Positions 10,094-48,842 of a DNA stretch of 59,849 nt are shown piece by piece. Under the pieces are notes generated by a model, which was not told the origin of the DNA, did not search any database, and saw only the letters and a program-made list of their open reading frames with translations. This stretch comes from a virus (lineage: Duplodnaviria; Caudoviricetes), in IMG/VR virus record IMGVR_UViG_3300027672_000013, positions 1 to 59,849 of that record; one strand, written 5' to 3'. The position numbers and the translations under genes are program-made. Positions within the stretch are counted from its first letter, which is position 1, and the number at the start of each line of letters is the position of its first letter.

Positions 10094-10111
10094 CGGGGGT
10101 TTGAACCCCCG
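10094..10111. repeat. Dispersed palindrome copy
   Basis: CGGGGGTTTGAACCCCCG in the non-coding strand-switch region. Confidence 0.85.
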
Positions 10112-10300
10112 TCCGAAAGAGTGAGTGCGCCCCCTGCGCCCCCTGCATACGCATACAAAGCAAGAGTGCTTACACATCTCTTTGCCCCTGCGCCCAAATT
10201 TACCTGCCTTACATAGTTTGGTGAACCCCTTGCTGCCATTGGGCTGTAGAGCTACGGATGAAGTAAGCGTGACTGACTGAAAAATTATCTCTCATCTGAT

Positions 10301-10333
10301 GTGTTGAATTAGACAATAAATGCACTACATTTG
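10301..10333 (+). promoter_or_regulatory. Early promoter 1 with AATTAGACAAT box
   Basis: TTG, AATTAGACAAT (10307-10317), 8 nt, TACATTTG (10326-10333). Confidence 0.75.
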
Positions 10334-10380
10334 TGAAAGCGCTGAACGAACAAATGACCTCAGCAATTAATCTCTCTATC

Positions 10381-10530
10381 ATGAAAAAGACCTTCAACGA
10401 GTACGTAGCGGAACTGATGCAGAATCTCGATACGCTGAACAGCATGAACCTCACAGCAGAAGCGCGTGACCATGGAAAGAAGACCTTGGTGGATGCTTAC
10501 ATAATTATGATGGCCGAATCGCAATCATAA
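10381..10530 (+). CDS. Early hypothetical protein (49 aa)
   Basis: ATG 10381 preceded by AATCTCTCTATC. Confidence 0.7.
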   Translation: MKKTFNEYVAELMQNLDTLNSMNLTAEARDHGKKTLVDAYIIMMAESQS

Positions 10531-10555
10531 ACCTAACAAATCTAATCTCTCTCTC

Positions 10556-10876
10556 ATGACTAACTTCTATCAAACAACCCAACTCGCAGTCAGCCTTCAG
10601 GAAGCTTTCAACTGCTTACCTGCTGACGCAATGGACGAAGTAACAATGACCGAAGGTCTTATCGTTGTTCGCTTTTACAAGAGCATCGTCACTCCTTTCG
10701 TCATCAGCACTCTGTTGGACAAATCCACAATCAAGGATGAGTACAAGGTGACTAAATCTCAGATATTACGTGACCCTGATACGGGCTTGTCGTTTGTGAC
10801 TCTCACTGCTGATGAAGTGAAGGTGAACGTGATGTGGCACGCACATTCAAACCCATGGTTGATGTTGGAGGACTAA
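10556..10876 (+). CDS. Early hypothetical protein
   Basis: 106 aa; AATCTCTCTCTC-ATG leader. Confidence 0.8.
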   Translation: MTNFYQTTQLAVSLQEAFNCLPADAMDEVTMTEGLIVVRFYKSIVTPFVISTLLDKSTIKDEYKVTKSQILRDPDTGLSFVTLTADEVKVNVMWHAHSNPWLMLED

Positions 10877-10931
10877 TTCAGTTACACTGATGATGACCTG
10901 AATGGTCGAAACGCTGTGAAGCGTATGTAAC
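10876..10931 (+). ncRNA. Hammerhead ribozyme, type I (HHR1)
   Basis: Stem I GUUACA/UGUAAC; core CUGAUGA plus an extra U; stem II GACC-UGAAU-GGUC; GAAA; stem III ACGCU-GUGA-AGCGU; cleavage after GUA (10925); upstream AUUCA is complementary to loop II. Confidence 0.88.
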
Positions 10932-10966
10932 AAACCCGATGCACAATGCATCACAATCTCTCTCTC

Positions 10967-11611
10967 ATGAATAACTTAAACGAACTCGAAGTAGCCTACT
11001 TCACAGACTTCAACGCAAACGGCACGAAGGTGCAAGCGTATCTCAACACAAAGGAATCAGTCAAGCTGATGAAGAAGAAAGGCTTTGACTCTTCAGTAAA
11101 GATGTGGCATCAGGTGAATGCTCTATGGTCGCATTTCACATCGGACGAACAGAAAGCACAGCGCGTTGAATCAGGCATCGTCATGACATCCACCGACTTT
11201 ACAGCGAAGGTGCTTGGATATGCTGACAAAAGCGAGAAGAACCGAATGTGCCGAATCGCTGAGCGAATCAATGAGCACGCAGGCTTGCTGACTGCATACA
11301 AGCGTGAACGCACCCGACAGGAGAACGCAGGTGAAAGTGTTAAGCGTTCTGCGCAGGATTTCGACAAATGGTCGAAGGTCGTATGTGAGCAAATCGACAA
11401 AGGTGCTGACGTAGATGGTGCTGCCGAAGCGACGGGTGAAGCGGAATCACAGACTGCGAAGAAAGCGTTCCAAGTTCAGACCTTCGGTGTATCAAAGATG
11501 CGAGCTACCATCGATGAAAATGGAGTAGGCAATTTGAATGGTGCGAGCAAAGCTGATGTGCTTGCTACGTTGGATGCGGCACGAGCAATCTTCGAAGCGA
11601 TGGCTGACTAA
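10967..11611 (+). CDS. Early hypothetical protein between HHR1 and HHR2 (214 aa)
   Basis: Start moved to ATG 10967 after AATCTCTCTCTC; no family recognised. Confidence 0.85.
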   Translation: MNNLNELEVAYFTDFNANGTKVQAYLNTKESVKLMKKKGFDSSVKMWHQVNALWSHFTSDEQKAQRVESGIVMTSTDFTAKVLGYADKSEKNRMCRIAERINEHAGLLTAYKRERTRQENAGESVKRSAQDFDKWSKVVCEQIDKGADVDGAAEATGEAESQTAKKAFQVQTFGVSKMRATIDENGVGNLNGASKADVLATLDAARAIFEAMAD

Positions 11612-11618
11612 TCCAAAC

Positions 11619-11634
11619 GGGGGTTTGAACCCCC
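11619..11634. repeat. Dispersed palindrome copy
   Basis: GGGGGTTTGAACCCCC between the stop at 11611 and HHR2. Confidence 0.85.
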
Positions 11635-11636
11635 AC

Positions 11637-11690
11637 TTCAGTTACACCGATGAGTCCTGAATGGACGAAACGCTGCGAAGCGTCTGTAAC
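11637..11690 (+). ncRNA. Hammerhead ribozyme, type I (HHR2, U4C core variant)
   Basis: Stem I GUUACA/UGUAAC; core CCGAUGA; stem II GUCC-UGAAU-GGAC (compensatory change relative to HHR1); GAAA; stem III ACGCU-GCGA-AGCGU; cleavage after GUC (11684). Confidence 0.88.
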
Positions 11691-11703
11691 AAATCTCTCT
11701 CTC

Positions 11704-11775
11704 ATGACTACTGAAAATCTATACCGAATCTCAACCGCCATCCTTTGGATTGCATTCATACTTTCTCAGCTATGA
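11704..11775 (+). CDS. 23-aa hydrophobic peptide
   Basis: MTTENLYRISTAILWIAFILSQL; has the AATCTCTCTCTC leader and an ATGA overlap with the next gene. Confidence 0.7.
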   Translation: MTTENLYRISTAILWIAFILSQL

Positions 11776-12740
11776 TTAACTACCAACCTGATACCAACAG
11801 CGAACGCGCAGAAATGATGGGCTACCATCGTTCACCTTCGCCGCGCGACCTTCGCAAAGGTGCATCCATCTCAGATATCGCAGGCTTGCGTCCTGCGGAC
11901 AGGAACGCACTTAAGCAAACAGGACTGCTCAACATCGATGCGAAGTACGGCATCGGGTTTGAGATTGAAAAGACATCCTTTGCTCGCAATGCAGTTCAGA
12001 ACTTTCCTTTGTTCTCAGGATATGAGCGCGATGGTTCCTGCGGATATGAAGCCATCACCAACATCCTGCCTTTGCTACCTGCATCGGAATGGCGCAACAA
12101 AGTGTACTCGATGTTCCATCAGGCTGAGCGCATCTTGGATGACCAATGGTCACCATCTGATACACGATGCGGAGGTCACATCACCCTATCCTGCGAAGGC
12201 ATGACAGGACATGAGCTGATGGACAACATGAGACCTTACATGGGCATCGTTTTGAGTCTATATCGCAAACGTCTTCGGAACTCGTATTGCATGCACAATG
12301 TCAACCTCGCATCAACCTCCGAAAGAGCATTCCGAAGGATGCACAACAAGTACAATGTAGCTAAGGTCATGAACCATGCCATTGAGCTACGTGTTCCATC
12401 TCGCGTGACCTGTGTTGCCGACATGAAGCGCAGGTACGAACTGATGTATGTGTTGGTTGACTGCGCACGTCAATCGTTCGAAGGCAATGCACCGACATGG
12501 GCGAAGGCAATGTCACGCATCAAGCCAATCGTCTCACTCATGTACAAGGACGATGAGAAAGAGCAGAAGATTTGGTCAATCGCCAAAGGGATGCAGAAGT
12601 TCATCAAAATCGGTAAGATGGACTTTGAGCTGATGCCGTATCTCGACCCATACTCAGATGAGTCACCCGAATTCCGAACACGCAAGTGCCAACGAATGCT
12701 CGACGAAGGTGCGCGAGCATACAACCTGACGAGATTCTGA
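11772..12740 (+). CDS. Putative amidoligase (COOH-NH2 ligase fold, Amidoligase_2-like)
   Basis: GIGFEIE, RDGS, YEAIT, CGGHIT, KY and IELR motifs in the order typical of the family; start moved to ATG 11772. Confidence 0.75.
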   Translation: MINYQPDTNSERAEMMGYHRSPSPRDLRKGASISDIAGLRPADRNALKQTGLLNIDAKYGIGFEIEKTSFARNAVQNFPLFSGYERDGSCGYEAITNILPLLPASEWRNKVYSMFHQAERILDDQWSPSDTRCGGHITLSCEGMTGHELMDNMRPYMGIVLSLYRKRLRNSYCMHNVNLASTSERAFRRMHNKYNVAKVMNHAIELRVPSRVTCVADMKRRYELMYVLVDCARQSFEGNAPTWAKAMSRIKPIVSLMYKDDEKEQKIWSIAKGMQKFIKIGKMDFELMPYLDPYSDESPEFRTRKCQRMLDEGARAYNLTRF

Positions 12741-12741
12741 T

Positions 12742-12767
12742 GGGGTGGGGGTTTGAACCCCCACTCC
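12742..12767. repeat. Dispersed palindrome copy
   Basis: GGGGTGGGGGTTTGAACCCCCACTCC between the stop at 12740 and HHR3. Confidence 0.85.
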
Positions 12768-12821
12768 GCTGTCGGGCGATGTGTATCGCTCCTGATGATG
12801 ACTCAAAAGAGTCGAAACAGC
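12768..12821 (+). ncRNA. Hammerhead ribozyme, type III (HHR3)
   Basis: Stem III GCUGU/ACAGC; cleavage after GUC (12773); stem I GGGCGAU-GUGU-AUCGCUC; CUGAUGA plus an extra U; stem II GACUC-AAAA-GAGUC; GAAA. Confidence 0.9.
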
Positions 12822-12860
12822 AAACCAATAAACGGGTGATGACCTACCATCAAAAGCCTT

Positions 12861-13103
12861 ATGAACTATCTACAATCGTTGCACTATGCTCTCGAAGCTG
12901 TCCAATCCAAAGTGCGTCCTAATGACGCATTGAACTCCGAAGCATCCCGATTTAGGAACGAAATCGAAGGTGCTCTTGCCTTCGCTGTTATCGCTGAGAT
13001 TAAGAGGTCGCAACCTTTCGCTCCGAATCGGACGTTAACTGCGGATGAGGTAGACACGATGGTTTCAGATGCCTATGCGAATCTCCCAAGCTTCAACTGC
13101 TAG
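12861..13103 (+). CDS. Early hypothetical protein
   Basis: 80-aa ORF following HHR3. Confidence 0.75.
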   Translation: MNYLQSLHYALEAVQSKVRPNDALNSEASRFRNEIEGALAFAVIAEIKRSQPFAPNRTLTADEVDTMVSDAYANLPSFNC

Positions 13104-13140: not shown

Positions 13141-13172
13141 TTTGGAATTAGACAATGTCTTCACTATATTTG
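13141..13172 (+). promoter_or_regulatory. Early promoter 2 with AATTAGACAAT box
   Basis: TTTG (13141), AATTAGACAAT (13146-13156), 8 nt, TATATTTG (13165-13172); a close match to the Bacteroidota -33/-7 consensus. Confidence 0.8.
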
Positions 13173-13225
13173 TACCATCATTAACACGGAGCGCACCTAA
13201 GCTCTTCACAATCTCTCTCTCAATC

Positions 13226-13424: not shown

Positions 13425-13448
13425 AGGTGGGGGTTCAAACCCCCACCT
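13425..13448. repeat. Dispersed palindrome copy
   Basis: AGGTGGGGGTTCAAACCCCCACCT, identical to 15245-15268. Confidence 0.85.
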
Positions 13449-13463
13449 TTATCTCTCTCTCTC

Positions 13464-13706
13464 ATGACTACTCACTATCTATTTGTCGCTCCGAATGTAT
13501 GGGGCAAAGGAACTTCCGAGCAGGAAGCACACAAGAACGCGCACTACGCAAGCAAGAGTAACGGACACGCGCTACTTCGATTCAACCACGATGACTTCTA
13601 TGTTGATGAGTACGGACACCTTCAATGCGAAGGCGAAGGCGGAACCATCCTAAGCGCAAGCAAGGGACTAGGCAAAGGGCTTCGACAATCACTAATGAAT
13701 CTCTGA
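13464..13706 (+). CDS. Early hypothetical protein (80 aa)
   Basis: Start moved to ATG 13464 after ATCTCTCTCTCTC. Confidence 0.75.
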   Translation: MTTHYLFVAPNVWGKGTSEQEAHKNAHYASKSNGHALLRFNHDDFYVDEYGHLQCEGEGGTILSASKGLGKGLRQSLMNL

Positions 13707-15244: not shown

Positions 15245-15268
15245 AGGTGGGGGTTCAAACCCCCACCT
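15245..15268. repeat. Dispersed palindrome copy
   Basis: AGGTGGGGGTTCAAACCCCCACCT after the stop at 15237. Confidence 0.85.
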
Positions 15269-16838: not shown

Positions 16839-17119
16839 CTGACATAATCCAACCAACCAAGAAGGGAATAGCTCGTATCATCATGGATGAAATCGTGCTG
16901 AAGACTATCACGCCATCAGGCAAGGAAGACCAAGCTGAACTATTAGATATGGTAGAGGAGGCAGTTGAGGAGTTCTTAACCGAGCTTCACAACCACCTTG
17001 TAGATGAGGATGCCGGGGGTTCAGACCCCCACCCAAGCGAGGGTGCTTGGGAGAATGCAGATAAGATTCTGCACAATGGTAAATGGTACGTGACTTATAA
17101 TGAACTAAATAAAAACTGA
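16835..17119 (+). CDS. Hypothetical protein containing a palindrome copy
   Basis: 94 aa; GGGGGTTCAGACCCCC at 17015-17030 lies inside the ORF. Confidence 0.7.
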   Translation: MTDIIQPTKKGIARIIMDEIVLKTITPSGKEDQAELLDMVEEAVEEFLTELHNHLVDEDAGGSDPHPSEGAWENADKILHNGKWYVTYNELNKN

Positions 17120-18259: not shown

Positions 18260-18275
18260 GGGGGTTCAAACCCCC
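18260..18275. repeat. Dispersed palindrome copy
   Basis: GGGGGTTCAAACCCCC right after the stop at 18258. Confidence 0.85.
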
Positions 18276-20085: not shown

Positions 20086-20114
20086 AGGGGGTGGGGGTTT
20101 AAACCCTCACCCCT
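20086..20114 (+). terminator. Palindrome copy / terminator
   Basis: AGGGGGTGGGGGTTTAAACCCTCACCCCT followed by CTTTTA. Confidence 0.7.
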
Positions 20115-25417: not shown

Positions 25418-25439
25418 CGGGGGTTTAAACCCCCTGCTA
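25415..25439. repeat. Dispersed palindrome copy at the convergence of the two gene blocks
   Basis: TAGCGGGGGTTTAAACCCCCTGCTA. Confidence 0.85.
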
Positions 25440-25501: not shown

Positions 25502-25538
25502 AAGCCCTCCGTTTCTTGTTGCGGGGGGCTTTTTTTAT
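25502..25538. terminator. Probable bidirectional terminator
   Basis: AAGCCCTCCG...CGGGGGGCTT followed by TTTTATT, between convergent blocks. Confidence 0.65.
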
Positions 25539-28500
25539 TCACTAGGAAGTCGGTCATACTTCCTTTTATTCTCCCTTTCTTTCTCCCTTTCCTTCTTACG
25601 TTCTTTTGCAGGATTAGAACTGCGAGCCTCCTTTTCTTCCTTCTTCTTTTTTCTCTCATCCTTCTTATCCTTCTCCCTCTGCCCTTTCGTACTTAAGATT
25701 CCATCTTCAATATAGTTAGGTCGGCTACTACCCCCGATACCCATTGCCTCATAGAAGGATTCCATTGCTAAGATATCCTCATCGGTTCCCTCTATCATCT
25801 CTTCTGTAAACTCAAACAAACCTATGAAGTTGTTTACGTCACCTCTCACCGCAACGCTAAGCCCTGTTTTTAAAGCTGCTAGTGCTCCGTCTTTTCCCGT
25901 CTCTACATCTTTGAAGTTTCGTGTCAAGCCCTTGACAGGAGTTACGCCTTGCTCTCCCAAACGGAACCCATCTCCCATCATCCAACTAGCTACTCCCTCA
26001 GCGGCGCTTCCGAGGATAGGTATAAAGGATAGCAGGTTAAATCCCGCTGCAGCCAACATCAACTTTTTGTATACCTCTTCTCTATCCTCGTCATCCCCCG
26101 ACCATAACTTACCAAAGTTACCTGCTGCGGTAAAGAGAACGTTGGCTCCTGCAAAGTTCATATAGAACTTACGAACGTCCTTCAGCTTAGGAGCTTTTCT
26201 TTTACCTACATCACGACTTATGTTGATACCTGACTGCACAACGTTGTTAATCATTAGCATAGGAGCTGTTCCAAACATAGTTAACAGAGCTGTGTATGCA
26301 GATTGGTTCTGCATCATAACGCTTCTGTCAGCAGGGTTTCTACTTTGTTGTGATGAGTTATACTCTTCAAACTTTTCGATAGCTGTCTCGGTATCCATAC
26401 CGTTGATTATGTTACGGCGATAGTTTGCCATATACCCTAACACTCCCGCTATGTCACCCACCATAGTACCAAAGGCTGAGCCGCGCTCATTGAATCTCAT
26501 AAGGCTTCCCAATATTCCTTTCTTTCGGATAGCGGGGGTTGACTTTGTTCCGGTTTCAAGCCCTACGATATCACCCTTTACCCCTTGCTCTAAACGATGT
26601 CGGAACGAAGGAGAGTTTTCTTTGGCGAACTTAACATACTTCCTCCCTTGAGCTAAGACTATAGCGAAGTCTCCTAACCAAAGAAGTAAATCCGCACCCG
26701 GAATTCTCTTACCGTCTTTTCTAAAAGTGTAATCAGGGATAGCTAATACAGCAGAGGTAGCTTGCTTAACTATTTGAACAGCTTTCCACCCTAAAGCAAT
26801 CCCAACGAATACTGATGAAAGCAGAGATAAAGCTTTGTCATTATAGATAGCGTTCTTTCCTGAGTTAGGATTGATAGCTTGATTGATAGACTGTCTAACC
26901 AAATTACTTGTACCTGTCATATCCAAAGCTGTCTTCACAGCTTCGTTAGTCATGATGGAATTAAGAGTCCGTGTGTCAGCAGCGAAAGCCTTGAACCTTT
27001 CCATGGATTGGAAGTGGTCTTCTAGTGCTGTAGTAAATGCAGCGTTGTCAAGTATAATCTCGTTGTCTGTATCAACACGTTCTTTCAATGCATTGGCAAA
27101 CTCAGCATCAAAGATTCCCATGAAGTCTCCTCCTTCCAACAGGTTTACATCTGTTCCATTGGCTATCGTTTGAGTAGGGAAGTAGTTAGATATGTAGTTT
27201 AGATTAACATCGTTTACCTCGCGGTATACATTGTTTATCCCCTCGTAATAATCATTGCTTAGATAGTTGACAGTCTCGTCCACAAAGGACATCATGTCTT
27301 GGCCTAAGAAGTTTTCTATTTTAGCAGCAGTAATAGGGTCATCGAAATCTATACCCATACGCGCAAGCTTATCACGTTGAACAGGGTTCTTAGATAAAGC
27401 ATAGATACGCATGACCGCATCCTTAGTAAAGTTTTCTTCTCGTGTAGCAAGATTTGAATTCTTATCCTGCTTCCCTCTAATCCTAGTAATGTTATCTAGC
27501 GTAAGCTCATCCGCTGAGTATATCTCTCGACGCATAAGCTTATAGCTTTCGAACCCATACTTCTGAGCCATAGCATCCATAGAATCTATTTGATTGTAGT
27601 ACCCCTTAAGGTATCTGCTCTCTGCTCGATTCAGTCTATTATAAACCTCCCTCTTCATCTCAGGACCTAAGGTCTCCATGAATGTACCAAGGTGTAGAAC
27701 ACCTCGAACGGCAGACTTAATGACATCACTTACATTGCTACTTGTAAAAGCTTTTACATAAGTCTTAGATGCCAATATCATCTTCTTCCCACGCTCATTA
27801 AATCCTTTACCGTTTCCGGAACGCCATATCTTTCTAGCTTCTTTAAGCTTAGCGTTGAATTCGTTTTTGTTCAGTGGTTGCCCGTCTGAATTAAAGAAGC
27901 TAGGGAATAGTTGTTTGAGCTGAGCTGTTATCCCTTGGTTTATTTTAGCATTAGCCTCGGCCCGTGTAGCCCTTGTCTGAGCAAGGATAGTACGCTCCGC
28001 TAATTGACCATCTTTATACTCCTTGAATATCTCCTTGACCTGCTCAAGAGACATGTCATTGATACCTTGGAACTCTTGGAGAGCCATAGATTTTAATACA
28101 ATCCTCCTCTCCTTAGTCGTAAGGTTGTCAAATCCCTGCAAGGAATTCTTCTCGATAGCTTTAACGGCTTCCTCTGTCTCAAGTGAAACACGTATCTCAT
28201 CTAGTGCTGCCTGTCTCTTGACAGGGTCTGCTATAGTAGCGGCACTTAACACCTTGGTTAACTCAGCTGCAAACGCCTGAGCGTCTGCGCCTAACCTACC
28301 TCTCCGTGCTTTCTTACCTGAAGAAGATGACTTGCCTTTCTTTGCATCAGACTTAACCTCACTAGCCAATTTGCTGATGAGCTTATTCTTTATCTTCTTA
28401 TTCTGAATCTCTACCTGACCTAGCACATACTCCATGTCAGCAAGCAAGCTTGACTCTGTAGCTTTAGCCACTCGGTTTACAAGACGATTGATTTGCCCTT

Positions 28501-31500
28501 GACTATAGATGCCTGACTTAGGCATGTTGTCTCTAATAAACTTAGAAAGGACTCGTTTGGATTGCATCAAAGTCTGCGCTCCCTTTCGTCGTTGCTTTAT
28601 GTTATTACGAATAGCGCTTATCTCCTGAGATATATCTCTGTTAGCTTTGATGTTCATGCTCTTGTCAAGAGCTACAGTAAGCTGCTCCTGTACCTCAACA
28701 GATTGAGATTGGAACACAGGATTAGCCCTTAATAATTCAAGTGCTTTAGCTCTAACCTTTGAGAAGGATGGGTTCGCAGAGGAGTCGGCAAAAGCCTCTA
28801 CCTGACTGTATACATCGGCGTAGATATCTTTACCCACGTTCATACCACCATCTACGTTACCAAACTCTACAGGAACTGTAGGGCTAAACAAGTCAATCAC
28901 CTCAGACATAGACGCATCAATGGCTTCTGCGGTATACCCCCTATCCATAAGTAACTTCCTAATTGCTGCATCAGCATAGCCATTCTGTCTACCAAAAGAA
29001 ATGGTATCGTTCATAGACATAGACCCATTGTCTGTCCCTGTCATGAACTGTATATCTTCCGATAGTCCTACCTCTTGTGCTTCAGCAAACAGCTCATTCT
29101 GTGAGAGCAGGTCAACCACTACAGCTTGAGCGAATTCGTCAAGCGTTAAGTTTTGTAATTGTTCAGAGCTTAGGTCAGATATGCCGGTAAGCTCTTTGAT
29201 GAAGTTGAATAAATCGGTAAGCCAATTCTTAAAGTTTCTCTTCTCTGCTGCCTTAGTAAAGGACTCACCCTTATTACCAATAGCTAGTGCCAATGCCTCC
29301 TCGCGGATATAGGTATTTATTTCCTGAGGACTAGACCCATCCTTCTTCATCTGCTTAATGACACGCTGATAGTTTTTACTATCCTTTACCTGTTGCACGT
29401 ATGGTGAATCATCGGGAACTAAATCCATACCAACTTGATATGCTTCAGAGTTTAATGCCTTAGCGGTGTTCAGCCATATGTGACCGAACTCGTGGATAGG
29501 AGTGTTGTAGTTTTCAAGAGACGGGTTTAGGTATACCTTTCCCTCTGACACTACACCATAAATCTTTTGGTCTTTAGTGGTTAGCTTATTAGAGTACGCA
29601 TCTTTTATCAAAGCTTTGAACTCTGCCGCGTCAGTGACTACTTCAACTCCGGGGAATGAAGCGCTCAGTCTAGAAAGAAACTGTTCATAGTTAGTCTTGG
29701 TAGAAGGGGCTACACGCGATGATGTACCTGCCGTCATCATAGCAGAGCGCATCTCAGCAGCGCGAGCCTCTTTGGAGGTGGCCGCCTTGCCCTCTTTAAA
29801 AGCTTTTATTGTCCCGTAGTTATTGGTTATAAACCTTCTGATATTTTTTACATCAGTAACCCTACTCTTACTAGCTATAGCTTGACCTGCCTTATTGTAT
29901 ATGTCTACCGTTCGTGTGCCGTCAGTGTTAGTTACTACCCTAACATCAAGCGTCCTTCCTTTGTCATCTAAGACAGTGTACTTATCTCGTTTAGTTATTC
30001 TCTGAGTAACCTTTTGATTAATCTTTTCTAATGAGCTAGGCAGTACGTTCCAAAACGGAACGGTATCCTCAAGCAATCCAACCGCAGCACCTCGAATATA
30101 TATAGGATAGTTCGTGTGACTTGGAACATCCTCAGATTGTTGCTGCTCCTCGGTCATCATGAAGTCCCTCCAATTTTTATTGTTAGGGCCAAGAAGTTCC
30201 GGAGTTACTTTCCTTCCCTGAGCATCCCTTACCTCAAGCACCATAGTTAACGCTCCCATAGGAAGCCCCTCCGTAAACTGCTCAATGTTAGCAGCTCGGA
30301 TGCTCTCCATAGTAGCTCCTATCTCCTTGAGTTTAACATGAATATCAACCTTGCTTTGGACTTGGTCCGTAGGGAATAGGTTGGTTATAATATCAGCCCT
30401 TAGGTCTGTTCCAAGTTTATCTATGTTAATAAGGAACTCTTCAATGGTTGCGGATTCAATAGCATCTTGAGCTTTCTTATTGTCAGCAGGTTTAGTTCCA
30501 TACTTCCTGCCTTTAAGATATTCTTTGGCTTGCTCAAAAAGCTCTTGACTATTCTCTTGCTGAGAAATAAGGTCCATCGCATAACGAGCGGTAACCATAT
30601 TAGAATCCAAGGCACTTGGTTTCATGTTGTAGACTACAGTGTAGTCACCCTTAGATGCCCCAATAATAATTCTCTTAGCTGCTTCCTCATCGATAGATGC
30701 CCATGCTACCTTACCGAAGATGCCTTCTTGCAAAGCGAAGAACGGACCGCCCATACGGAATTCATCAACCTTTAGTTGGTCAGCCATCGCTAGGTTTACG
30801 CTCGTGTCATATAACTCCGAAAGCGGAATCCTACGCACCTTACTTACAAGCTCTCCATTTTCGGTAACAACAATCGGAACGCTTACCATAGTAGTTTCCT
30901 CTACAGTAAAGTCGTTCTCCGCTAACTCAGGTGATACCTCGTTCAATAACTTGGTGGCCTCTCTTACTTCTTTATCTGTAACACCAAAGCCATTCGTATC
31001 CTTTTCAATTTGGAAATTCCTTTGAGTAGAGGTATCAAACTTGGAGAAAGAAGAAGCCGTAGAGTAATCCGCAGGCATCGTCTTGCTATCGGGGTCTGCG
31101 TTTCGACGCACAATTTTAACGCGTTCTATAAGCGCGTCTTTAACCATGGATTTTTGAGAAGGGTTAAGCTTAGTGGCTGACTCAAATGCAATAGCTACAT
31201 AGCCGGGCCTGCCGTCTTCGTCCTTAATTACACCTTCCCCACCCTCGTACATTATGTAGTAATACTTTCCATCTACAGTTTTTTCAACAAAATCCTCCCT
31301 GTAATTCTCCCTAGGTCTCTCCCTGTCAAGGCTAAGATTAACCTGTTCTCCCTCTGTAAAAGACTCTAGCCCATTGCGAGTTCCATAAGCAAAGAACTTA
31401 CCTGCATTTACAGGACCCATCAGCTGCTGTCGCTCCTCAGCTCTTCGCTCTTCGGGGCTGACTTGAGCTTGCCGTTCTTTAGCTGCAGCCAAACGACGAA

Positions 31501-34500
31501 TTTTACCTTCAGACCACTGAGTGATAGCTCTGCCATATGCTTCTTGTGTTGCAAAGTCTGACTCTTGCAATGGGAACTGCTCAGCAGCTATCTCTTCAGC
31601 TGTATTCCCTTCTTGTCTAGATGCCAAAAGCTCAGCCTCAATCTCGGTAGCTGTTTGCTCAGGGGCGGGGGTTTGAACCCCCGCTTCAGCGGCTGCTTCT
31701 GTAACGGCCTGTCGATTCTGAGGGCTGAGCAGTTGGTCAGCCAACTCGGTAGGCGTTACGGTTGCTGTAGTTTCATTAACCGCTGCAGGCGCAACCTCAG
31801 GTAGTGGTTGGTTAAACTTATTGGCAAAGGATTTGAACTCTTCTAAGGAAACCCTTCCCTCTATCATCGCATTAAAAACATCGCTAAAAATTCCTTGGTC
31901 TCCATCTGAAATTGCCAAACGAAGGCTTCTTCCCCCCGCTCTAGACTGAGTTCTCCCCAATGGTATATCAGCACCTATTTTTCTAAGCGCACGAGTGACC
32001 GTGGCTGTCGGGGAATCTCCACTTATTACTGTTCGAATAATCTTCTGTATAGCAAAAAAGTCGTATCCCTCTGCTGCTAGTTCCTTTTTTCTTTTCTGAA
32101 TTTTAGGTGGGTACCCCGGTACCATCCCGTCATTTACAGGTGCAGCCTCTTCTACTACAGGAGCGGCCTCTTCTACTACTGCTTCAGGCGCAGCCTCTTC
32201 GACTCCTGCTAATTCATTTATCTGTCGCAACTGCTCTTCAGTAGCAGGAAACTTTCCGTCCGGTAGTGCAAACTTTGGAATACCGTTGCCTTGTCTTACG
32301 GACTTAGCGGCTTGTACGATTCTCCTCTTTGATTTAATCTCCTTAAGTTCAGCAGCTTCTTGTACGCCCAAGGCAGCAAGGGCAGCGGTATTAGCGGGTG
32401 AATCCTTACGCCTTTTAATTTTTGCTCGTTCTTTTTTAAATCTGTTTTTTAATTCTACTGCTTTTCTCTCGTACCTATTGAGTTCGAACGTCATCTCATC
32501 ATCAGTAAGCCGTTCGGTTGGAGCTGCTTCTTCCTGAACTACAGGCGCAGCTGCCTCTTCTACCGCGACTTCTTCTACTACAGGCGCAGCCTCCTCAACA
32601 GGAGCAGCCTCCTCAACTACAGGCTCAGGAGCAAACAATCCCTCACCAATTTCTTGAGATAAAGCCTCAGCCTCTGCGTTAACTGCAGCTTCCTCACTAG
32701 CTACTACTTCTTTCTGAAACTTGGTAAGCTTCTTACCATCAGCCTTTCTCTTCTCTATACCTGCCACGATACCATTAAGCCTTACCGGGTCAATGGTGCC
32801 GTTTCTAAATGCGTTTACGTCTGAACGTATAGGCTTGTCGATAGCCTCTACTACTTCCTCTTGAGCAATTTCTTCCGCAGCTTGGTCTTCGGCTTGAGTC
32901 TGCTCGGTAGCTTCGTCTGTTGCGGGTACTCCTTCTCCCACCTCTGCGCTATCTGTGGTTGGTTCTTGTGTAAGTACCTCCTCTGTGCTTGGCTCTTGAA
33001 TGGCATCTTCAGTATCTATAGTTGGTGTAACATTAAACGCCTCAACATCCCCGACTTCTATCCCTGTATTAACCGCATCAGTAACATCTACATCTTCACT
33101 AACCTCAGATAAAAGCCCTTCTACTAACGATGCTGTTTGAGAGTCGTTTGTTATTTGAGCATTGTCAGCTATACGCCTAAGTCTACGTGGGCTTGCATCC
33201 TCTATGTAAGAAAGGAACTGCTTCTTTGTCATCATCGTTCTTCCCACACGATAAGACGGTACTCCCTTCCTTCCGTACCCTGCAATATTCAAAGACGATA
33301 TATCTATAGCGCCTTCAACCACATCTCCCGTCTCGGATATGGTTCTAATCTCTGCATTGATATCAGCTATCGTGCCTTGAAAAACTTCCCTACGGCTGTT
33401 GGTAGATGACAGCCCATCACGAACTGCCATTAGTTCCATGAGCCTAGCCCTAGCCTTACCGCTGTTAGAGGAGGATACATCTAACAAATCATTTGCCTCT
33501 CTTCGTAGACCTACGTTCTCAAGGACACGCTGCCCCTGCTCAGCGTCTATCTTACCTAAACGAACCATGTTGTCAGTCCATCGCTGAATCTGAGTATCAC
33601 TTGAACCATCCAAGGCCATGGTTTCGGTATTCATAAACTCGTTAGCAAGACGGAGATTGTTATTTCCCATAGTTTGTCGTGCTATAGTAGCTGCGGCATT
33701 AGCCCCTTGGCTACCTATAGAACCTAAGCTCTCAGCAAGCACCTCCTTACCATCTATCTCATCGCCCACAGAGAGCATAGCCAATGCTTCACCCGCGCCT
33801 TCTGCTGCAGGGTCAAATATAAATCTCTCAAGAGTATAAGAAGCCACCTTAGCGCCCTTGCTTGCCGCTAAAGCAGGCTTGAATACCTTACCCGCCATTC
33901 CTCCTGCTATAAAATCCATAGCAGCGATTGTAATTCCACGCTTAAACCCCCTCTCTTTTCCTTCAGCCCATACCTTCTCGTCCCTCAATGCAAGAAACAT
34001 TTGTTCAGGGTTAGTAGCATCGTAGCCAAAGCTTCCCGCTGCTTCTAATAGCGCATTAGTATACTCCAATATAAAGGAGTTAACTGACATGCCCGTCCTT
34101 ACCCCATATCCGAAACCTGTAACGGCACCGGGTAAAGCGCCCACACCAAAAGCTGATACACCAACACCTGCTCCAACAGCGGTTCCTGAAAGTGTAGTTC
34201 CTGCAAGAATCTCTGCGCCATATGGAAGTACCTGAGCTAGGGAAGAACCCATAAAAGTAAGGGCAACTTCTGCAGGGTTATTTCTTAAAGCCCTTCGAAT
34301 CTCAGGTCCTGTACGTGCGTTATTATATCGACTCAATCCACGGGATTGATTTAAACTTTTTGATTCGTTAATCTGAATCATCTCAACAACAGCATCCATC
34401 AATGCCTTGTCATCCTCTACGTCAATACTTCCTGTAGCAAGCTTTAATAATACCTCAGCTCCCTCCCCTGTCTTTATACCATTACTCCACTCAACTTCAA

Positions 34501-36331
34501 ATGCCTCTACGTTATCTACAAACTCTCCCCCAATATTTTTATCATGCTTCCTACTAAGGTAAAGCTTGGACTGTTCGTACTGTAAAGCAGCAGCCTGTCT
34601 ACTAGCTTCCATGCCAAGGTAGTTCTCTACAATTTCATTGTAAGCATTAGCTTCATTCTGAGTGCGAGGTGTGAAGTCGGGTAACTCACTAAAGGGTACA
34701 CCTAAAGTATCAAATGACTGCTGTTCTAAAACAGCTAATTGTCCCTTCAATTGTTGGTTAGCCTTAGAAGCTTCCTTTGCCTTGACCTGACGTTTTTCCT
34801 CTAGGTATACATCAAGGTCCTCTCTCATTAACTTTAGGTCCTCGTCATATACGATATCGAATAACCCCTGAGCCTCTTGCTCTACCCTAGACTTTTCCAA
34901 ATTAAGCGCCCTCGCATTAAGGGGGCCGCCGTCCTCGTTAAAGTAATCTAGATAGCTCGCATCGGTATCGGTGCTTAATAACCGCTGCTCATCCGAAGTT
35001 AAATCGTCGCTGTATATATTGTTCTCAGCCATCTCTTCAAGAAGTAAAGACTTCTTAACTAGATTGTCATATGAATCTAGAGCTTGTTGATAGGAATTAT
35101 AATCACCGCCTCTCTTTTGAAAGAACAACTCTGATTCTAAATCTACTGTATTAGCGGTCTTCCATGACCCCTCAGCAAAAGCATTGGCTTCTTCCTCAGT
35201 ATTAAAAGTATACACCTCCCCCCTTTGCCTAGCTCTTTCGATAGCTTCTTCTAAGGGAAGCTCATCCCATGTATTAGCATTGCCATCTGTCCTGTACCCT
35301 CCCTTTGGAAATAAAGTAGGCACCACCTTATACACACCGTCCTCCTCAAAGGATGTCATAAGGTGAGAAGAGGAGGTTCCATCTGAATTTCTCCTAGATA
35401 TAGGCCGAGACTCTTTAGCTCTTAAAGAATTCTGAGCGTTTAATCCGGGTTCGTTGTCAGTAAGATAACCCCCATCGCCATCTTCACCGAGGTTTTCGGG
35501 TATAGTTATCGCTTCAGTATAAGCATGGTCCTTAATAAAGTTTCTGAGTTTTACGGATTCACTCTCAGCCCCTCTTGCCGTAAAGGTATCTAGGTCAAAT
35601 GTTTCCTCCTGAGTACCGTTATGATTAACTACGGTAACAGCATCGCCCGCTCCTGATTCAATAAAATTAAATCCCCACACACCAAAATTCTCTCTTAATA
35701 TAGGAACAACATCCTCCTCTTCTTGGGCTATAAGCTCAGGGGTTATAAGAGAATTAGCTAGAGCTTCTGCAGGCTCATAAAGCCCTTTCGCTCTCATCTC
35801 TTCATCCTTTGAGGCATCTTTTAACCCACTCACTTCACCTGCTTTCGCAAGCTCTGCTGCTTTTGCTTCTGCATCGGCAAAATATTTATCCGCTTCAAGA
35901 CCTGCCTCTCTAACCCCCATTCCTGAAGGGTCAAAGTACTGAGACTCATCCCGTGAACCCGTTTCCCTTAGCGGTGTAGCTAACCTCTCAGCCTCGGCTG
36001 TACGTTCAACTGCTACCTGCTCAGGGGTAGCATCAATGTCTTCAATCGTAAGAGCGGACCGCCCCGATAAACCACTTTCCAAAAGCGAATCCGTAGGCTC
36101 TTCTTTTTTTTTTACAGGTGCAGCTTCTTCCTGAGGCTGTACAACAGGGAAGTATTTAGCCTTAAAGTCTTGTCGAGTCTTGCTATATAGCCCACGCGCA
36201 GCGACCTCCTTAAATATATTCTCTTGCTCGTTCGGGTTACCGTTATACTTAGCTACAAACTCATCAAAAGATTTTGTATAAAGACCCTGCGCTTTAACAG
36301 TATCGTAAAGCAACTGTAGATTCTCGTTCAT
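25535..36331 (-). CDS. Giant (3598 aa) probable internal virion/ejection polyvalent protein with a zincin-like HExxH domain
   Basis: Last gene of the structural operon; PIHEFGHIW (29480-29494) with a downstream EEALA; hydrophobic Gly-rich segments; EEAAP repeats. Confidence 0.75.
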   Translation of the reverse strand: MNENLQLLYDTVKAQGLYTKSFDEFVAKYNGNPNEQENIFKEVAARGLYSKTRQDFKAKYFPVVQPQEEAAPVKKKEEPTDSLLESGLSGRSALTIEDIDATPEQVAVERTAEAERLATPLRETGSRDESQYFDPSGMGVREAGLEADKYFADAEAKAAELAKAGEVSGLKDASKDEEMRAKGLYEPAEALANSLITPELIAQEEEDVVPILRENFGVWGFNFIESGAGDAVTVVNHNGTQEETFDLDTFTARGAESESVKLRNFIKDHAYTEAITIPENLGEDGDGGYLTDNEPGLNAQNSLRAKESRPISRRNSDGTSSSHLMTSFEEDGVYKVVPTLFPKGGYRTDGNANTWDELPLEEAIERARQRGEVYTFNTEEEANAFAEGSWKTANTVDLESELFFQKRGGDYNSYQQALDSYDNLVKKSLLLEEMAENNIYSDDLTSDEQRLLSTDTDASYLDYFNEDGGPLNARALNLEKSRVEQEAQGLFDIVYDEDLKLMREDLDVYLEEKRQVKAKEASKANQQLKGQLAVLEQQSFDTLGVPFSELPDFTPRTQNEANAYNEIVENYLGMEASRQAAALQYEQSKLYLSRKHDKNIGGEFVDNVEAFEVEWSNGIKTGEGAEVLLKLATGSIDVEDDKALMDAVVEMIQINESKSLNQSRGLSRYNNARTGPEIRRALRNNPAEVALTFMGSSLAQVLPYGAEILAGTTLSGTAVGAGVGVSAFGVGALPGAVTGFGYGVRTGMSVNSFILEYTNALLEAAGSFGYDATNPEQMFLALRDEKVWAEGKERGFKRGITIAAMDFIAGGMAGKVFKPALAASKGAKVASYTLERFIFDPAAEGAGEALAMLSVGDEIDGKEVLAESLGSIGSQGANAAATIARQTMGNNNLRLANEFMNTETMALDGSSDTQIQRWTDNMVRLGKIDAEQGQRVLENVGLRREANDLLDVSSSNSGKARARLMELMAVRDGLSSTNSRREVFQGTIADINAEIRTISETGDVVEGAIDISSLNIAGYGRKGVPSYRVGRTMMTKKQFLSYIEDASPRRLRRIADNAQITNDSQTASLVEGLLSEVSEDVDVTDAVNTGIEVGDVEAFNVTPTIDTEDAIQEPSTEEVLTQEPTTDSAEVGEGVPATDEATEQTQAEDQAAEEIAQEEVVEAIDKPIRSDVNAFRNGTIDPVRLNGIVAGIEKRKADGKKLTKFQKEVVASEEAAVNAEAEALSQEIGEGLFAPEPVVEEAAPVEEAAPVVEEVAVEEAAAPVVQEEAAPTERLTDDEMTFELNRYERKAVELKNRFKKERAKIKRRKDSPANTAALAALGVQEAAELKEIKSKRRIVQAAKSVRQGNGIPKFALPDGKFPATEEQLRQINELAGVEEAAPEAVVEEAAPVVEEAAPVNDGMVPGYPPKIQKRKKELAAEGYDFFAIQKIIRTVISGDSPTATVTRALRKIGADIPLGRTQSRAGGRSLRLAISDGDQGIFSDVFNAMIEGRVSLEEFKSFANKFNQPLPEVAPAAVNETTATVTPTELADQLLSPQNRQAVTEAAAEAGVQTPAPEQTATEIEAELLASRQEGNTAEEIAAEQFPLQESDFATQEAYGRAITQWSEGKIRRLAAAKERQAQVSPEERRAEERQQLMGPVNAGKFFAYGTRNGLESFTEGEQVNLSLDRERPRENYREDFVEKTVDGKYYYIMYEGGEGVIKDEDGRPGYVAIAFESATKLNPSQKSMVKDALIERVKIVRRNADPDSKTMPADYSTASSFSKFDTSTQRNFQIEKDTNGFGVTDKEVREATKLLNEVSPELAENDFTVEETTMVSVPIVVTENGELVSKVRRIPLSELYDTSVNLAMADQLKVDEFRMGGPFFALQEGIFGKVAWASIDEEAAKRIIIGASKGDYTVVYNMKPSALDSNMVTARYAMDLISQQENSQELFEQAKEYLKGRKYGTKPADNKKAQDAIESATIEEFLINIDKLGTDLRADIITNLFPTDQVQSKVDIHVKLKEIGATMESIRAANIEQFTEGLPMGALTMVLEVRDAQGRKVTPELLGPNNKNWRDFMMTEEQQQSEDVPSHTNYPIYIRGAAVGLLEDTVPFWNVLPSSLEKINQKVTQRITKRDKYTVLDDKGRTLDVRVVTNTDGTRTVDIYNKAGQAIASKSRVTDVKNIRRFITNNYGTIKAFKEGKAATSKEARAAEMRSAMMTAGTSSRVAPSTKTNYEQFLSRLSASFPGVEVVTDAAEFKALIKDAYSNKLTTKDQKIYGVVSEGKVYLNPSLENYNTPIHEFGHIWLNTAKALNSEAYQVGMDLVPDDSPYVQQVKDSKNYQRVIKQMKKDGSSPQEINTYIREEALALAIGNKGESFTKAAEKRNFKNWLTDLFNFIKELTGISDLSSEQLQNLTLDEFAQAVVVDLLSQNELFAEAQEVGLSEDIQFMTGTDNGSMSMNDTISFGRQNGYADAAIRKLLMDRGYTAEAIDASMSEVIDLFSPTVPVEFGNVDGGMNVGKDIYADVYSQVEAFADSSANPSFSKVRAKALELLRANPVFQSQSVEVQEQLTVALDKSMNIKANRDISQEISAIRNNIKQRRKGAQTLMQSKRVLSKFIRDNMPKSGIYSQGQINRLVNRVAKATESSLLADMEYVLGQVEIQNKKIKNKLISKLASEVKSDAKKGKSSSSGKKARRGRLGADAQAFAAELTKVLSAATIADPVKRQAALDEIRVSLETEEAVKAIEKNSLQGFDNLTTKERRIVLKSMALQEFQGINDMSLEQVKEIFKEYKDGQLAERTILAQTRATRAEANAKINQGITAQLKQLFPSFFNSDGQPLNKNEFNAKLKEARKIWRSGNGKGFNERGKKMILASKTYVKAFTSSNVSDVIKSAVRGVLHLGTFMETLGPEMKREVYNRLNRAESRYLKGYYNQIDSMDAMAQKYGFESYKLMRREIYSADELTLDNITRIRGKQDKNSNLATREENFTKDAVMRIYALSKNPVQRDKLARMGIDFDDPITAAKIENFLGQDMMSFVDETVNYLSNDYYEGINNVYREVNDVNLNYISNYFPTQTIANGTDVNLLEGGDFMGIFDAEFANALKERVDTDNEIILDNAAFTTALEDHFQSMERFKAFAADTRTLNSIMTNEAVKTALDMTGTSNLVRQSINQAINPNSGKNAIYNDKALSLLSSVFVGIALGWKAVQIVKQATSAVLAIPDYTFRKDGKRIPGADLLLWLGDFAIVLAQGRKYVKFAKENSPSFRHRLEQGVKGDIVGLETGTKSTPAIRKKGILGSLMRFNERGSAFGTMVGDIAGVLGYMANYRRNIINGMDTETAIEKFEEYNSSQQSRNPADRSVMMQNQSAYTALLTMFGTAPMLMINNVVQSGINISRDVGKRKAPKLKDVRKFYMNFAGANVLFTAAGNFGKLWSGDDEDREEVYKKLMLAAAGFNLLSFIPILGSAAEGVASWMMGDGFRLGEQGVTPVKGLTRNFKDVETGKDGALAALKTGLSVAVRGDVNNFIGLFEFTEEMIEGTDEDILAMESFYEAMGIGGSSRPNYIEDGILSTKGQREKDKKDERKKKKEEKEARSSNPAKERKKEREKERENKRKYDRLPSE
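31665..31684. repeat. Dispersed palindrome copy inside the giant gene
   Basis: GCGGGGGTTTGAACCCCCGC, encoding AGVQTPA. Confidence 0.8.
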
Positions 36332-48818: not shown

Positions 48819-48842
48819 GGGTGGGGGTTTGAACCCCCACCC
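48819..48842 (-). terminator. Palindrome copy after the major capsid gene
   Basis: GGGTGGGGGTTTGAACCCCCACCC with a pyrimidine/T tract following on the - strand. Confidence 0.75.

Follow-up and report, generated by a model that had tools for sequence, protein, structure and literature searches.

What do self-cleaving ribozymes do between the early genes of a DNA phage? The question is raised by the whole IMG/VR virus record IMGVR_UViG_3300027672_000013, a stretch of 59,849 base pairs (bp) with completeness rated 99%, hereafter the window, in which three hammerhead motifs, named HHR1, HHR2 and HHR3, stand within 1.9 kb, all intergenic and all on the coding strand. Judging from the motifs, their placement and their counterparts in related phages, we consider it likely that the three hammerheads split the polycistronic early transcript of this marine tailed phage into gene-length mRNAs.

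Clusters of hammerheads that flank single genes were described from prophages by Perreault et al., with three clusters cleaving in vitro and one in vivo, and mRNA processing was proposed for them (PMC3088659). A 2017 review, in its part on prokaryotes, states that the motifs flank small, non-conserved open reading frames (ORFs) and calls their role there open (PMC6155905), and a further source describes hammerheads in the 5'-untranslated regions of RNA viruses as serving translation, and type I hammerheads with a long helix III as known from bacteria and phages (PMC13725137). The arrangement has thus been known in phages since 2011, and the present locus is a well-resolved further case of it, with no new kind of RNA and no new mechanism. 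What it adds is comparative evidence on the role of hammerheads in phages, the very question that the review calls open (PMC6155905). A preliminary description of this DNA had proposed that HHR1 and HHR2 could release a circular RNA of 759 nucleotides (nt) with a single gene, made by the phage as a circular mRNA or captured as an RNA-based mobile unit.

Three hammerheads in the spacers of an early operon

HHR1 (type I; 10881-10931, + strand) is laid out as GUUACA / CUGAUGA / U / GACC-ugaau-GGUC / GAA / ACGCU-guga-AGCGU / A, cut, UGUAAC, with every conserved core base present and one inserted U (10894) between A9 and G10.1; its predicted cut falls after A10925, at a GUA triplet. HHR2 (type I; 11641-11690, + strand) is laid out as GUUACA / CCGAUGA / GUCC-ugaau-GGAC / GAA / ACGCU-gcga-AGCGU / C, cut, UGUAAC, and its core (CCGAUGA) is canonical apart from a C at U4, the cut being predicted after C11684, at GUC. 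Both consist of three helices, with stems of 6, 4 and 5 bp, and are open at stem I. According to the repeat finder they are direct repeats at a spacing of 759 nt, with 38 nt at 92% and 17 nt at 94% identity, and their stem I strands together with the next three bases (AAA) are identical. Since the cuts fall after 10925 and 11684, the piece between them is 10926-11684, or 759 nt, and 85% of it is taken by an ORF of 214 amino acids (aa; 10967..11611, + strand), the sole long ORF inside. HHR3 (type III; 12768-12821, + strand) reads GCUGUC, cut, GGGCGAU-gugu-AUCGCUC CUGAUGA U GACUC-aaaa-GAGUC GAA ACAGC; its stems measure 7, 5 and 5 bp, stem III is the open one, the core is canonical except for an additional U behind A9, and the cut would fall after C12773, at GUC. 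Read base by base, the sequence confirms both type I hammerheads where the preliminary description had placed them, and likewise its account of direct repeats with identical stem I strands around one long ORF; to be added or corrected are the extra U of HHR1, the U4 to C change of HHR2, and the type III HHR3 with its cut after 12773.

The placement of the motifs is regular. A slot consists of a stop codon, often a GC hairpin, the hammerhead, a short leader and an ATG. HHR1 starts 4 nt past the stop codon of a 106-aa ORF, and HHR2 and HHR3 are each preceded by a stop codon and a GC hairpin, namely GGGGGUUUGAACCCCC (11619..11634, + strand), between the stop codon of the 214-aa ORF and HHR2, and a hairpin at 12747..12762 (+ strand). 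HHR1 and HHR2 are each followed by the CU-rich leader AAUCUCUCUCUC and an ATG; this leader lies at 10955..10966 (+ strand) directly before the ATG of the 214-aa ORF, and stands before 5 ATGs of the operon region. Same-strand hammerheads flank one ORF and then two ORFs, as in clusters of at least two same-strand motifs around single genes or short blocks. At the head of the operon there is a promoter-like element, TTAGACAAT-N5-CACTAnATTTGT, at 10309..10334 (+ strand), whose second copy lies at 13148..13173 (+ strand); the pattern has these 2 matches against 0 expected, and the element may act as a promoter.

Do the motifs exceed chance expectation?

A descriptor scanner was used which covers the core, an optional extra base and the three stems in all three topologies, and a match was called strong at a minimum of 4 bp for each stem and a stem sum of 15 bp. 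The scan of the window gives exactly three sites, HHR1, HHR2 and HHR3. Strong matches number 3 in the window and 0.035 on average in 200 block shuffles, at least one being present in 7/200 shuffles and at least three in 0/200. A plain pattern, GATGA-N8-30-CGAAAC, has 5 matches in the window versus 0.49 expected. For each motif taken alone, the three-way hammerhead junction is the minimum-energy fold; with their flanks, HHR2 and HHR3 fold as a GC hairpin and a separate hammerhead, and a competing fold exists for HHR1 plus its 5' flank. Our own covariance model R1, built from 16 type I copies, gives 67.1 bits for HHR1 and 70.6 bits for HHR2, and run with its filters off it reports these two alone as type I copies in the window.

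Evidence of a different kind comes from the copies that the model collected elsewhere, namely 29 of type I from 18 sources (20 distinct), including copies of three loci (L020, L023, L025) which were reached via a protein and not via the RNA. Among the 20 distinct copies, 10 of the 15 stem pairs have changed on both sides and 99.7% of cells are paired, against 24-38% in slid controls, this paired share being inflated because the descriptor and the model with which part of the collecting was done both require pairing. The 16-copy training set gives the same picture of covariation. Despite the collection bias, the variety of base pairs found at single positions is to be expected of a real structured RNA. 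The type III motif behaves alike: its stem I occurs as GGGCGAU/AUCGCUC, UCAGGCU/AGCCUGA and UUAGGCU/AGCCUAA, and compensatory changes are found in stems I, II and III, among them changes in a second phage group.

Comparison with relatives

If the unit of interest were a gene between twin hammerheads, relatives carrying the gene should tell. Single-protein IMG/VR scans with the 214-aa protein and with the 322-aa protein encoded downstream of HHR2 gave no relatives, and the loci were found by a six-row protein alignment; seven of them (L020-L026) carry a homologue of the 214-aa protein with its upstream side visible. An upstream hammerhead is present in 0/7, so that the check named in the preliminary description, whether the homologues are hammerhead-flanked elsewhere, came out negative for the upstream side. 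Five loci of phages at about 73% DNA identity (L010, L017, L020, L024, L025, of which two may be the same phages filed twice) have the homologue at 41-42% identity, and directly before it they show the promoter-like element (TTAGACAAT ... CACTAnnTTTG) and the CU leader, with a hammerhead on the 3' side alone. Downstream the order in these five is hairpin, type I hammerhead, 322-aa gene, hairpin, type III hammerhead and next promoter-like element, the type III motif being the orthologue of HHR3 without the extra U. In L026 the upstream side is the same, up to the contig end.

The most telling relative is L023, a scaffold 93-95% identical to the window, in which a point at about 10400 is joined directly to about 10955. 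It lacks the 49-aa ORF at the head of the operon, the 106-aa ORF and HHR1 together, about 586 nt in all, and the crossover lies within the repeated leader AAUCUCUCUnUCAUGAA. Because L023 lacks both together, the unit that varies at the DNA level is that of the small ORFs with HHR1, and not that of HHR1, gene and HHR2. A third state of the slot is suggested by record 11 of the contigs from run X15, where a different upstream sequence is joined to an HHR1-like motif and followed by the same downstream bases. Taken as a whole, the comparison indicates that a hammerhead behaves as the 3' end of the cassette upstream of it, and that where the cassette is missing the promoter-like element would supply the 5' end. 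The leader left by HHR1 measures 41 nt, about the estimated leader length of a transcript from the promoter-like element. The core of HHR2 in L023 is the canonical CUGAUGA, sister strains having T at 11648. A pseudoknot of UUCA (before stem I) with UGAA (loop II), possible in HHR1 and HHR2, was also considered and was rejected, since L023 has UCA with UAAAU.

A hammerhead family in marine phages

How far does this arrangement reach beyond the close relatives? A scan for an exact pattern with the window's own stem III found 0 loci, and a loose pattern (core, CGAAACG, CGUH-UGUAAC) found 17 loci in IMG/VR. In related loci the hammerheads are grouped on one strand, as many as five of them within 2.4 kb (L005, L011). 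These belong to a second phage group, which uses GAGG ribosome sites and in which a stop codon precedes each hammerhead by 0-3 nt and GAGG-ATG follows it at a distance of 10-25 nt. Its five-hammerhead array of about 2.4 kb (one type III and four type I; L005 618-2990 on the - strand, L011 2055-4427) has each hammerhead between a stop codon and the next ribosome site, and some of them enclose one 56-aa ORF each, the units being 242-249 nt long. One hammerhead per intergenic slot is the rule in both phage groups, whose translation signals differ.

Natural variants were read from the contigs of four of the 20 public DNA runs in which the phage was found. Contigs of all four runs have T in place of C at 11648; in two runs there are contigs that agree fully with the window, C11648 included, and C11648 is accordingly a real allele. 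One contig variant of the same phage has an HHR2 with T at 11648, an extra U, and a stem II U-A changed to G-U; an HHR1-like copy on another contig is without the extra U and has GUC; and stem III also occurs as ACGUC/GACGU. Such variants, with or without HHR1, with U4 or C4, and with or without the extra U, make a role of the ribozymes as insulators or punctuation testable.

Some contigs in runs X15, X17 and X18 match solely 11640-11691, the 52 nt of HHR2, with unlike flanks, and one of them has a depth of about 700. These HHR2-only contigs, and the depth of that one, indicate that a nearly identical hammerhead is present in other marine phages of far higher abundance. On each of two contigs the hammerhead is present in two copies. 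A pattern scan of species genomes hit 4 contigs in four phyla, and complete hammerheads were found solely in L030 (434-1617), a contig binned into a marine Verrucomicrobia metagenome-assembled genome, where three motifs of the kind found in the second phage group are present; the contig may derive from a prophage or be phage DNA that was binned wrongly, and it gives no host assignment.

A probable punctuation of the early transcript

The following course of events would account for these observations. The region 10300-13100 would form one early transcription unit with the hammerheads in its intergenic spacers, and each ribozyme would cut itself as the RNA is made, which would yield gene-length mRNAs. 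After the cut at HHR1 or HHR2, the upstream piece would end in a structured 3' tail, composed of the GC hairpin (where present) and the ribozyme body, with a 2',3'-cyclic phosphate, and the downstream piece would begin with a 5'-OH and a short unstructured leader of 41 nt (HHR1) or 19 nt (HHR2) before the ATG. After the cut at the type III HHR3, the upstream piece would end 11 nt behind its hairpin. The likely benefit would be insulation, in that every gene could have its own ends, stability and translation whatever cargo stands upstream, and each ribozyme would move together with whatever gene or cassette precedes it, as the 3' end of that unit. Gain and loss of the ribozyme together with the upstream cassette, with the promoter-like element filling the slot otherwise, fit such a role as insulator or punctuation. 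In synthetic insulators of the RiboJ type, a hammerhead before the coding sequence trims the variable upstream RNA and so frees expression from the upstream context; RiboJ is an engineered part, whereas the present motifs are natural and the ribozyme is seemingly tied to the 3' end of the upstream gene.

Among natural systems the clusters of Perreault et al. come closest, being likewise same-strand hammerheads of mixed topology within 2-3 kb in phage intergenic spacers, which flank small genes of non-constant identity and for which both processing and circles had been discussed in the parts of the literature concerned with them (PMC3088659, PMC6155905). The present case differs in that the carrier is an uncultured marine podophage of virulent type and not a prophage, that the module of stop codon, GC hairpin, hammerhead, CU leader and ATG is regular, with an extra U after A9 in two of three motifs, and that the comparison of strains shows the ribozyme moving with the upstream cassette. 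For the haloarchaeal viruses HF1/HF2, a hammerhead upstream of an early helicase gene is described with a mapped 5' end at most 3 nt from the cut, but that motif stands alone, has an unusual core, needs high salt and belongs to an archaeal virus (PMC3088659).

Several points weigh against the reading of the hammerheads as transcript punctuation. The whole window has 0 Rfam matches at the gathering score: HHR2 reaches 28.7 bits with RF00163 (Hammerhead_1), below the gathering threshold of 34 bits (E = 2.6e-4 for 2.6 kb searched, 0.006 for the whole window); even with the E-value cut-off relaxed to 10, HHR1 matches no Rfam family, nor does HHR3 match one, the type III model (RF00008) included, at E up to 5, the misses of HHR1 and HHR3 being presumably due to the inserted U. 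Indeed all three motifs depart from the textbook core, by the extra U in HHR1 and HHR3 and by U4 to C in HHR2. In mutagenesis work, changes at U4 strongly slow hammerhead cleavage, and HHR2 of this strain may accordingly be weak. The bias towards paired copies mentioned above belongs here as well. A more distant freshwater podophage, MW202828.1 (L002, 41797-51974), has the same gene layout of a chaperonin gene, divergent early genes and a gamma-glutamyl cyclotransferase gene, and no hammerhead was detected in this 10-kb locus by Rfam, the descriptor scanner or model R1, from which it follows that the ribozymes are dispensable for such operons. Finally, the public sequencing runs in which the stretch was searched for comprise 20 DNA runs and 0 RNA runs; cleavage in vivo, and with it an effect on stability or translation, is what the sequence leads us to infer.

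Competing explanations

Could the modules work mainly on DNA? The hammerhead and leader modules, of about 50-70 nt, might, as repeated linkers, be chiefly sites of homologous recombination that shuffle early-gene cassettes from phage to phage, with cleavage secondary or neutral. Such a role would suit the near-same 50-nt motif in otherwise unrelated phages (the contigs matching 11640-11691 alone), the stem I and core common to two phage groups with different types of ribosome site, and the gene content between motifs, which differs among strains and in L023 changes by a crossover in the repeated leader. That crossover, however, lies in the leader and not in the hammerhead, no contig joint skipping a hammerhead-to-hammerhead unit was seen in four runs, and it is the pairing in all three stems, through compensatory changes, and the core bases that are conserved, not the whole sequence, which argues for selection on the RNA structure; we hold a mainly recombinational role to be rather unlikely. 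It could also be supposed that the motifs are decaying relics, in which the core departures have killed the activity of all three so that the transcript stays intact. None of the three reaches the Rfam gathering score, as this would predict, and the orthologues in relatives have canonical cores, but the stems are intact in all three motifs, and the extra U, being common to HHR1, HHR3 and one strain variant of HHR2, looks tolerated or selected. An extra U at the A9/G10.1 position is said, from work of De la Pena and Flores in 2001, to be able even to speed cleavage. In the natural and active hammerhead of CChMVd, as described in the pertinent part of the source, an extra base (A10) stands at the same place, between A9 and G10.1, with moderate rate loss, and GUA is listed there as a natural cut triplet of active hammerheads (PMC1636495). 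A loss of all activity is very unlikely in our view.

The circle put forward in the preliminary description is, to us, the least probable of the readings considered. It holds that the 759-nt RNA is closed by reverse ligation on a rebuilt HHR2 or by a host RtcB-type ligase, which would give an exonuclease-resistant message for the 214-aa protein, and its premises are partly sound: were both hammerheads to cut, an RNA of 759 nt with one gene would be released, and since UGUAACAAA, with which it begins, is also the 3' strand that HHR2 naturally has, the ends could rebuild that ribozyme. The minimum-energy fold of the 759-nt RNA does pair its ends, although the centroid does not; matching stem I strands are present in 5/10 distinct neighbouring type I pairs of related contigs; and the ends made by hammerheads (5'-OH and 2',3'-cyclic phosphate) are substrates of RtcB-type ligases, on the route described for retrozymes (PMC7229834, PMC4918200). 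Against this, the upstream hammerhead is absent from all 7 homologue loci, including the 93-95% identical L023; in the other 5/10 pairs of type I neighbours the stem I strands are incompatible, rebuilding is impossible wherever one partner is of type III, and the next junction downstream has as partner the type III HHR3, with no rebuilding across it; and the HHR2 of this strain carries the U4 to C change, lacking in sister strains. The 759-nt RNA is not unusually structured either (z = -0.75; 4/20 shuffles fold as well). That its length is a multiple of 3 had been remarked on correctly, but so is that of 8/16 inter-hammerhead segments (P = 0.13). The ORF keeps its stop codon, as had been stated, and a circle would have stops in each of its three frames (13, 16 and 3), so that endless translation is impossible.

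Nor do known circular RNAs offer a close parallel. Retrozymes and viroid-like RNAs resemble the locus in having two same-sense hammerheads whose cut ends could rebuild one of them and whose end chemistry fits a tRNA ligase or RtcB, but they are non-coding, highly self-complementary and defined by the twin arrangement. Here the RNA is an mRNA of average foldedness, neither highly self-complementary nor mostly non-coding, and the twin-ribozyme unit is no conserved element, the twin arrangement being confined to the strain and the next junction being of type III. For the phage clusters, circular or spliced products were considered by Perreault et al. and, in the portion of the paper that treats them, not detected (PMC3088659), and in our literature search no circular mRNA made by ribozymes came up for a DNA phage. 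Contigs from four runs contain no joint that skips 10926-11684, though four runs cannot show the absence of a DNA form without the 759-nt unit; the one joint seen, from 11691 back to 11649, comes from other contigs with two hammerhead copies. A circular mRNA or mobile unit is without comparative support. Were the 759-nt RNA nevertheless closed into a translatable circle in cells infected by this strain, no earlier case of a circular mRNA made by ribozymes in a DNA phage would precede it, and the 246-nt single-gene units of the second phage group, with matching type I pairs and a 56-aa ORF (L008, L009, L015, L016), would then form circles as well.

The 214-aa protein

The protein between HHR1 and HHR2 has no assigned function. 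An in-frame upstream ATG at 10946 would lengthen it to 221 aa. Its family is small, clustering at 90% identity leaving 5 clusters and a search at E up to 1e-3 giving 27 representatives, and among 26 members no Pfam family was found; there is one weak PHROG match (E 0.0015), to a PHROG without function, and a sequence search of the Protein Data Bank (PDB) gave no match. The structure prediction called for in the preliminary description yields a confident model (pLDDT 91.4) without a clear structural match: the N-terminal and central part is helical, the C-terminus has a small beta-sheet and a helix, Foldseek returns nothing at E up to 0.001, and the best VIA-align Z is 7.1, with residues 37-105 at Z 4-5 against helix-turn-helix and sigma-4-like domains, which is within the stated noise band. 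The conserved N-terminal and central region is a candidate helix-turn-helix-like element, and a DNA-binding role may be guessed from the model.

Neighbouring genes and genomic setting

The remaining ORFs of the operon differ in their constancy. The 49-aa ORF (10381..10530, + strand; no Pfam or PHROG match) and the 106-aa ORF (10556..10876, + strand; no family found) form the strain-variable segment, which L023, L010 and L017 all lack. The HHR2 cut is followed directly by a hydrophobic 23-aa ORF (11704..11775, + strand) whose stop overlaps the next start (ATGA); L023 retains it with amino-acid changes, and it is absent from the 73%-identity relatives L010/L017. The 322-aa ORF (11772..12740, + strand), with no function assigned, is kept in L010/L017/L024/L025 at about 73% nucleotide identity. 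After HHR3 comes an 80-aa ORF (12861..13103, + strand) that is absent from relatives, where the next promoter-like element stands directly behind HHR3.

The GC hairpins before HHR2 and HHR3 belong to a 16-nt palindrome, GGGGGTTYRAACCCCC, with 12 copies in the genome versus 0 expected: 715-730, 10095-10110, 11619-11634, 12747-12762, 13429-13444, 15249-15264, 17015-17030, 18260-18275, 20093-20108, 25419-25434, 31667-31682 and 48823-48838. The majority stand directly after stop codons, and at least two (31667, 48823) lie, by position, inside long ORFs. A terminator-like T-run stands behind the copy near 715-730, the other copies being without one.

The record encodes a portal, a large terminase, virion structural proteins, helicases, an annealing protein of the Sak type, an exonuclease, a GroEL-like chaperonin and a gamma-glutamyl cyclotransferase fusion; the phage is an uncultured marine podophage of virulent type, and the hammerhead locus belongs to a group of small + strand genes which is oriented divergently to the chaperonin gene. 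An ORF of 3598 aa (25535-36331, - strand) has 0 PHROG matches at 1e-5 and may encode a giant virion or ejection protein; an N4-like virion RNA polymerase was considered for it and was dropped for want of a PHROG match at that level. The DNA runs with the phage (20 runs of 13 studies) come from sea water, sponges and marine sediment.

As to translation signals, the early genes start behind a CU-rich leader, UCUCUCUCUC-AUG, without a Shine-Dalgarno sequence, at 10371-10383, 10546-10558, 10957-10969, 11694-11706 and 13454-13466. In the promoter-like repeats at 10309 and 13148 the last bases are TAnnTTTG, which we take to be the -7 box of Bacteroidota. Together, the CU leader without Shine-Dalgarno sequence and the TAnnTTTG ends hint at a host among the Bacteroidota.

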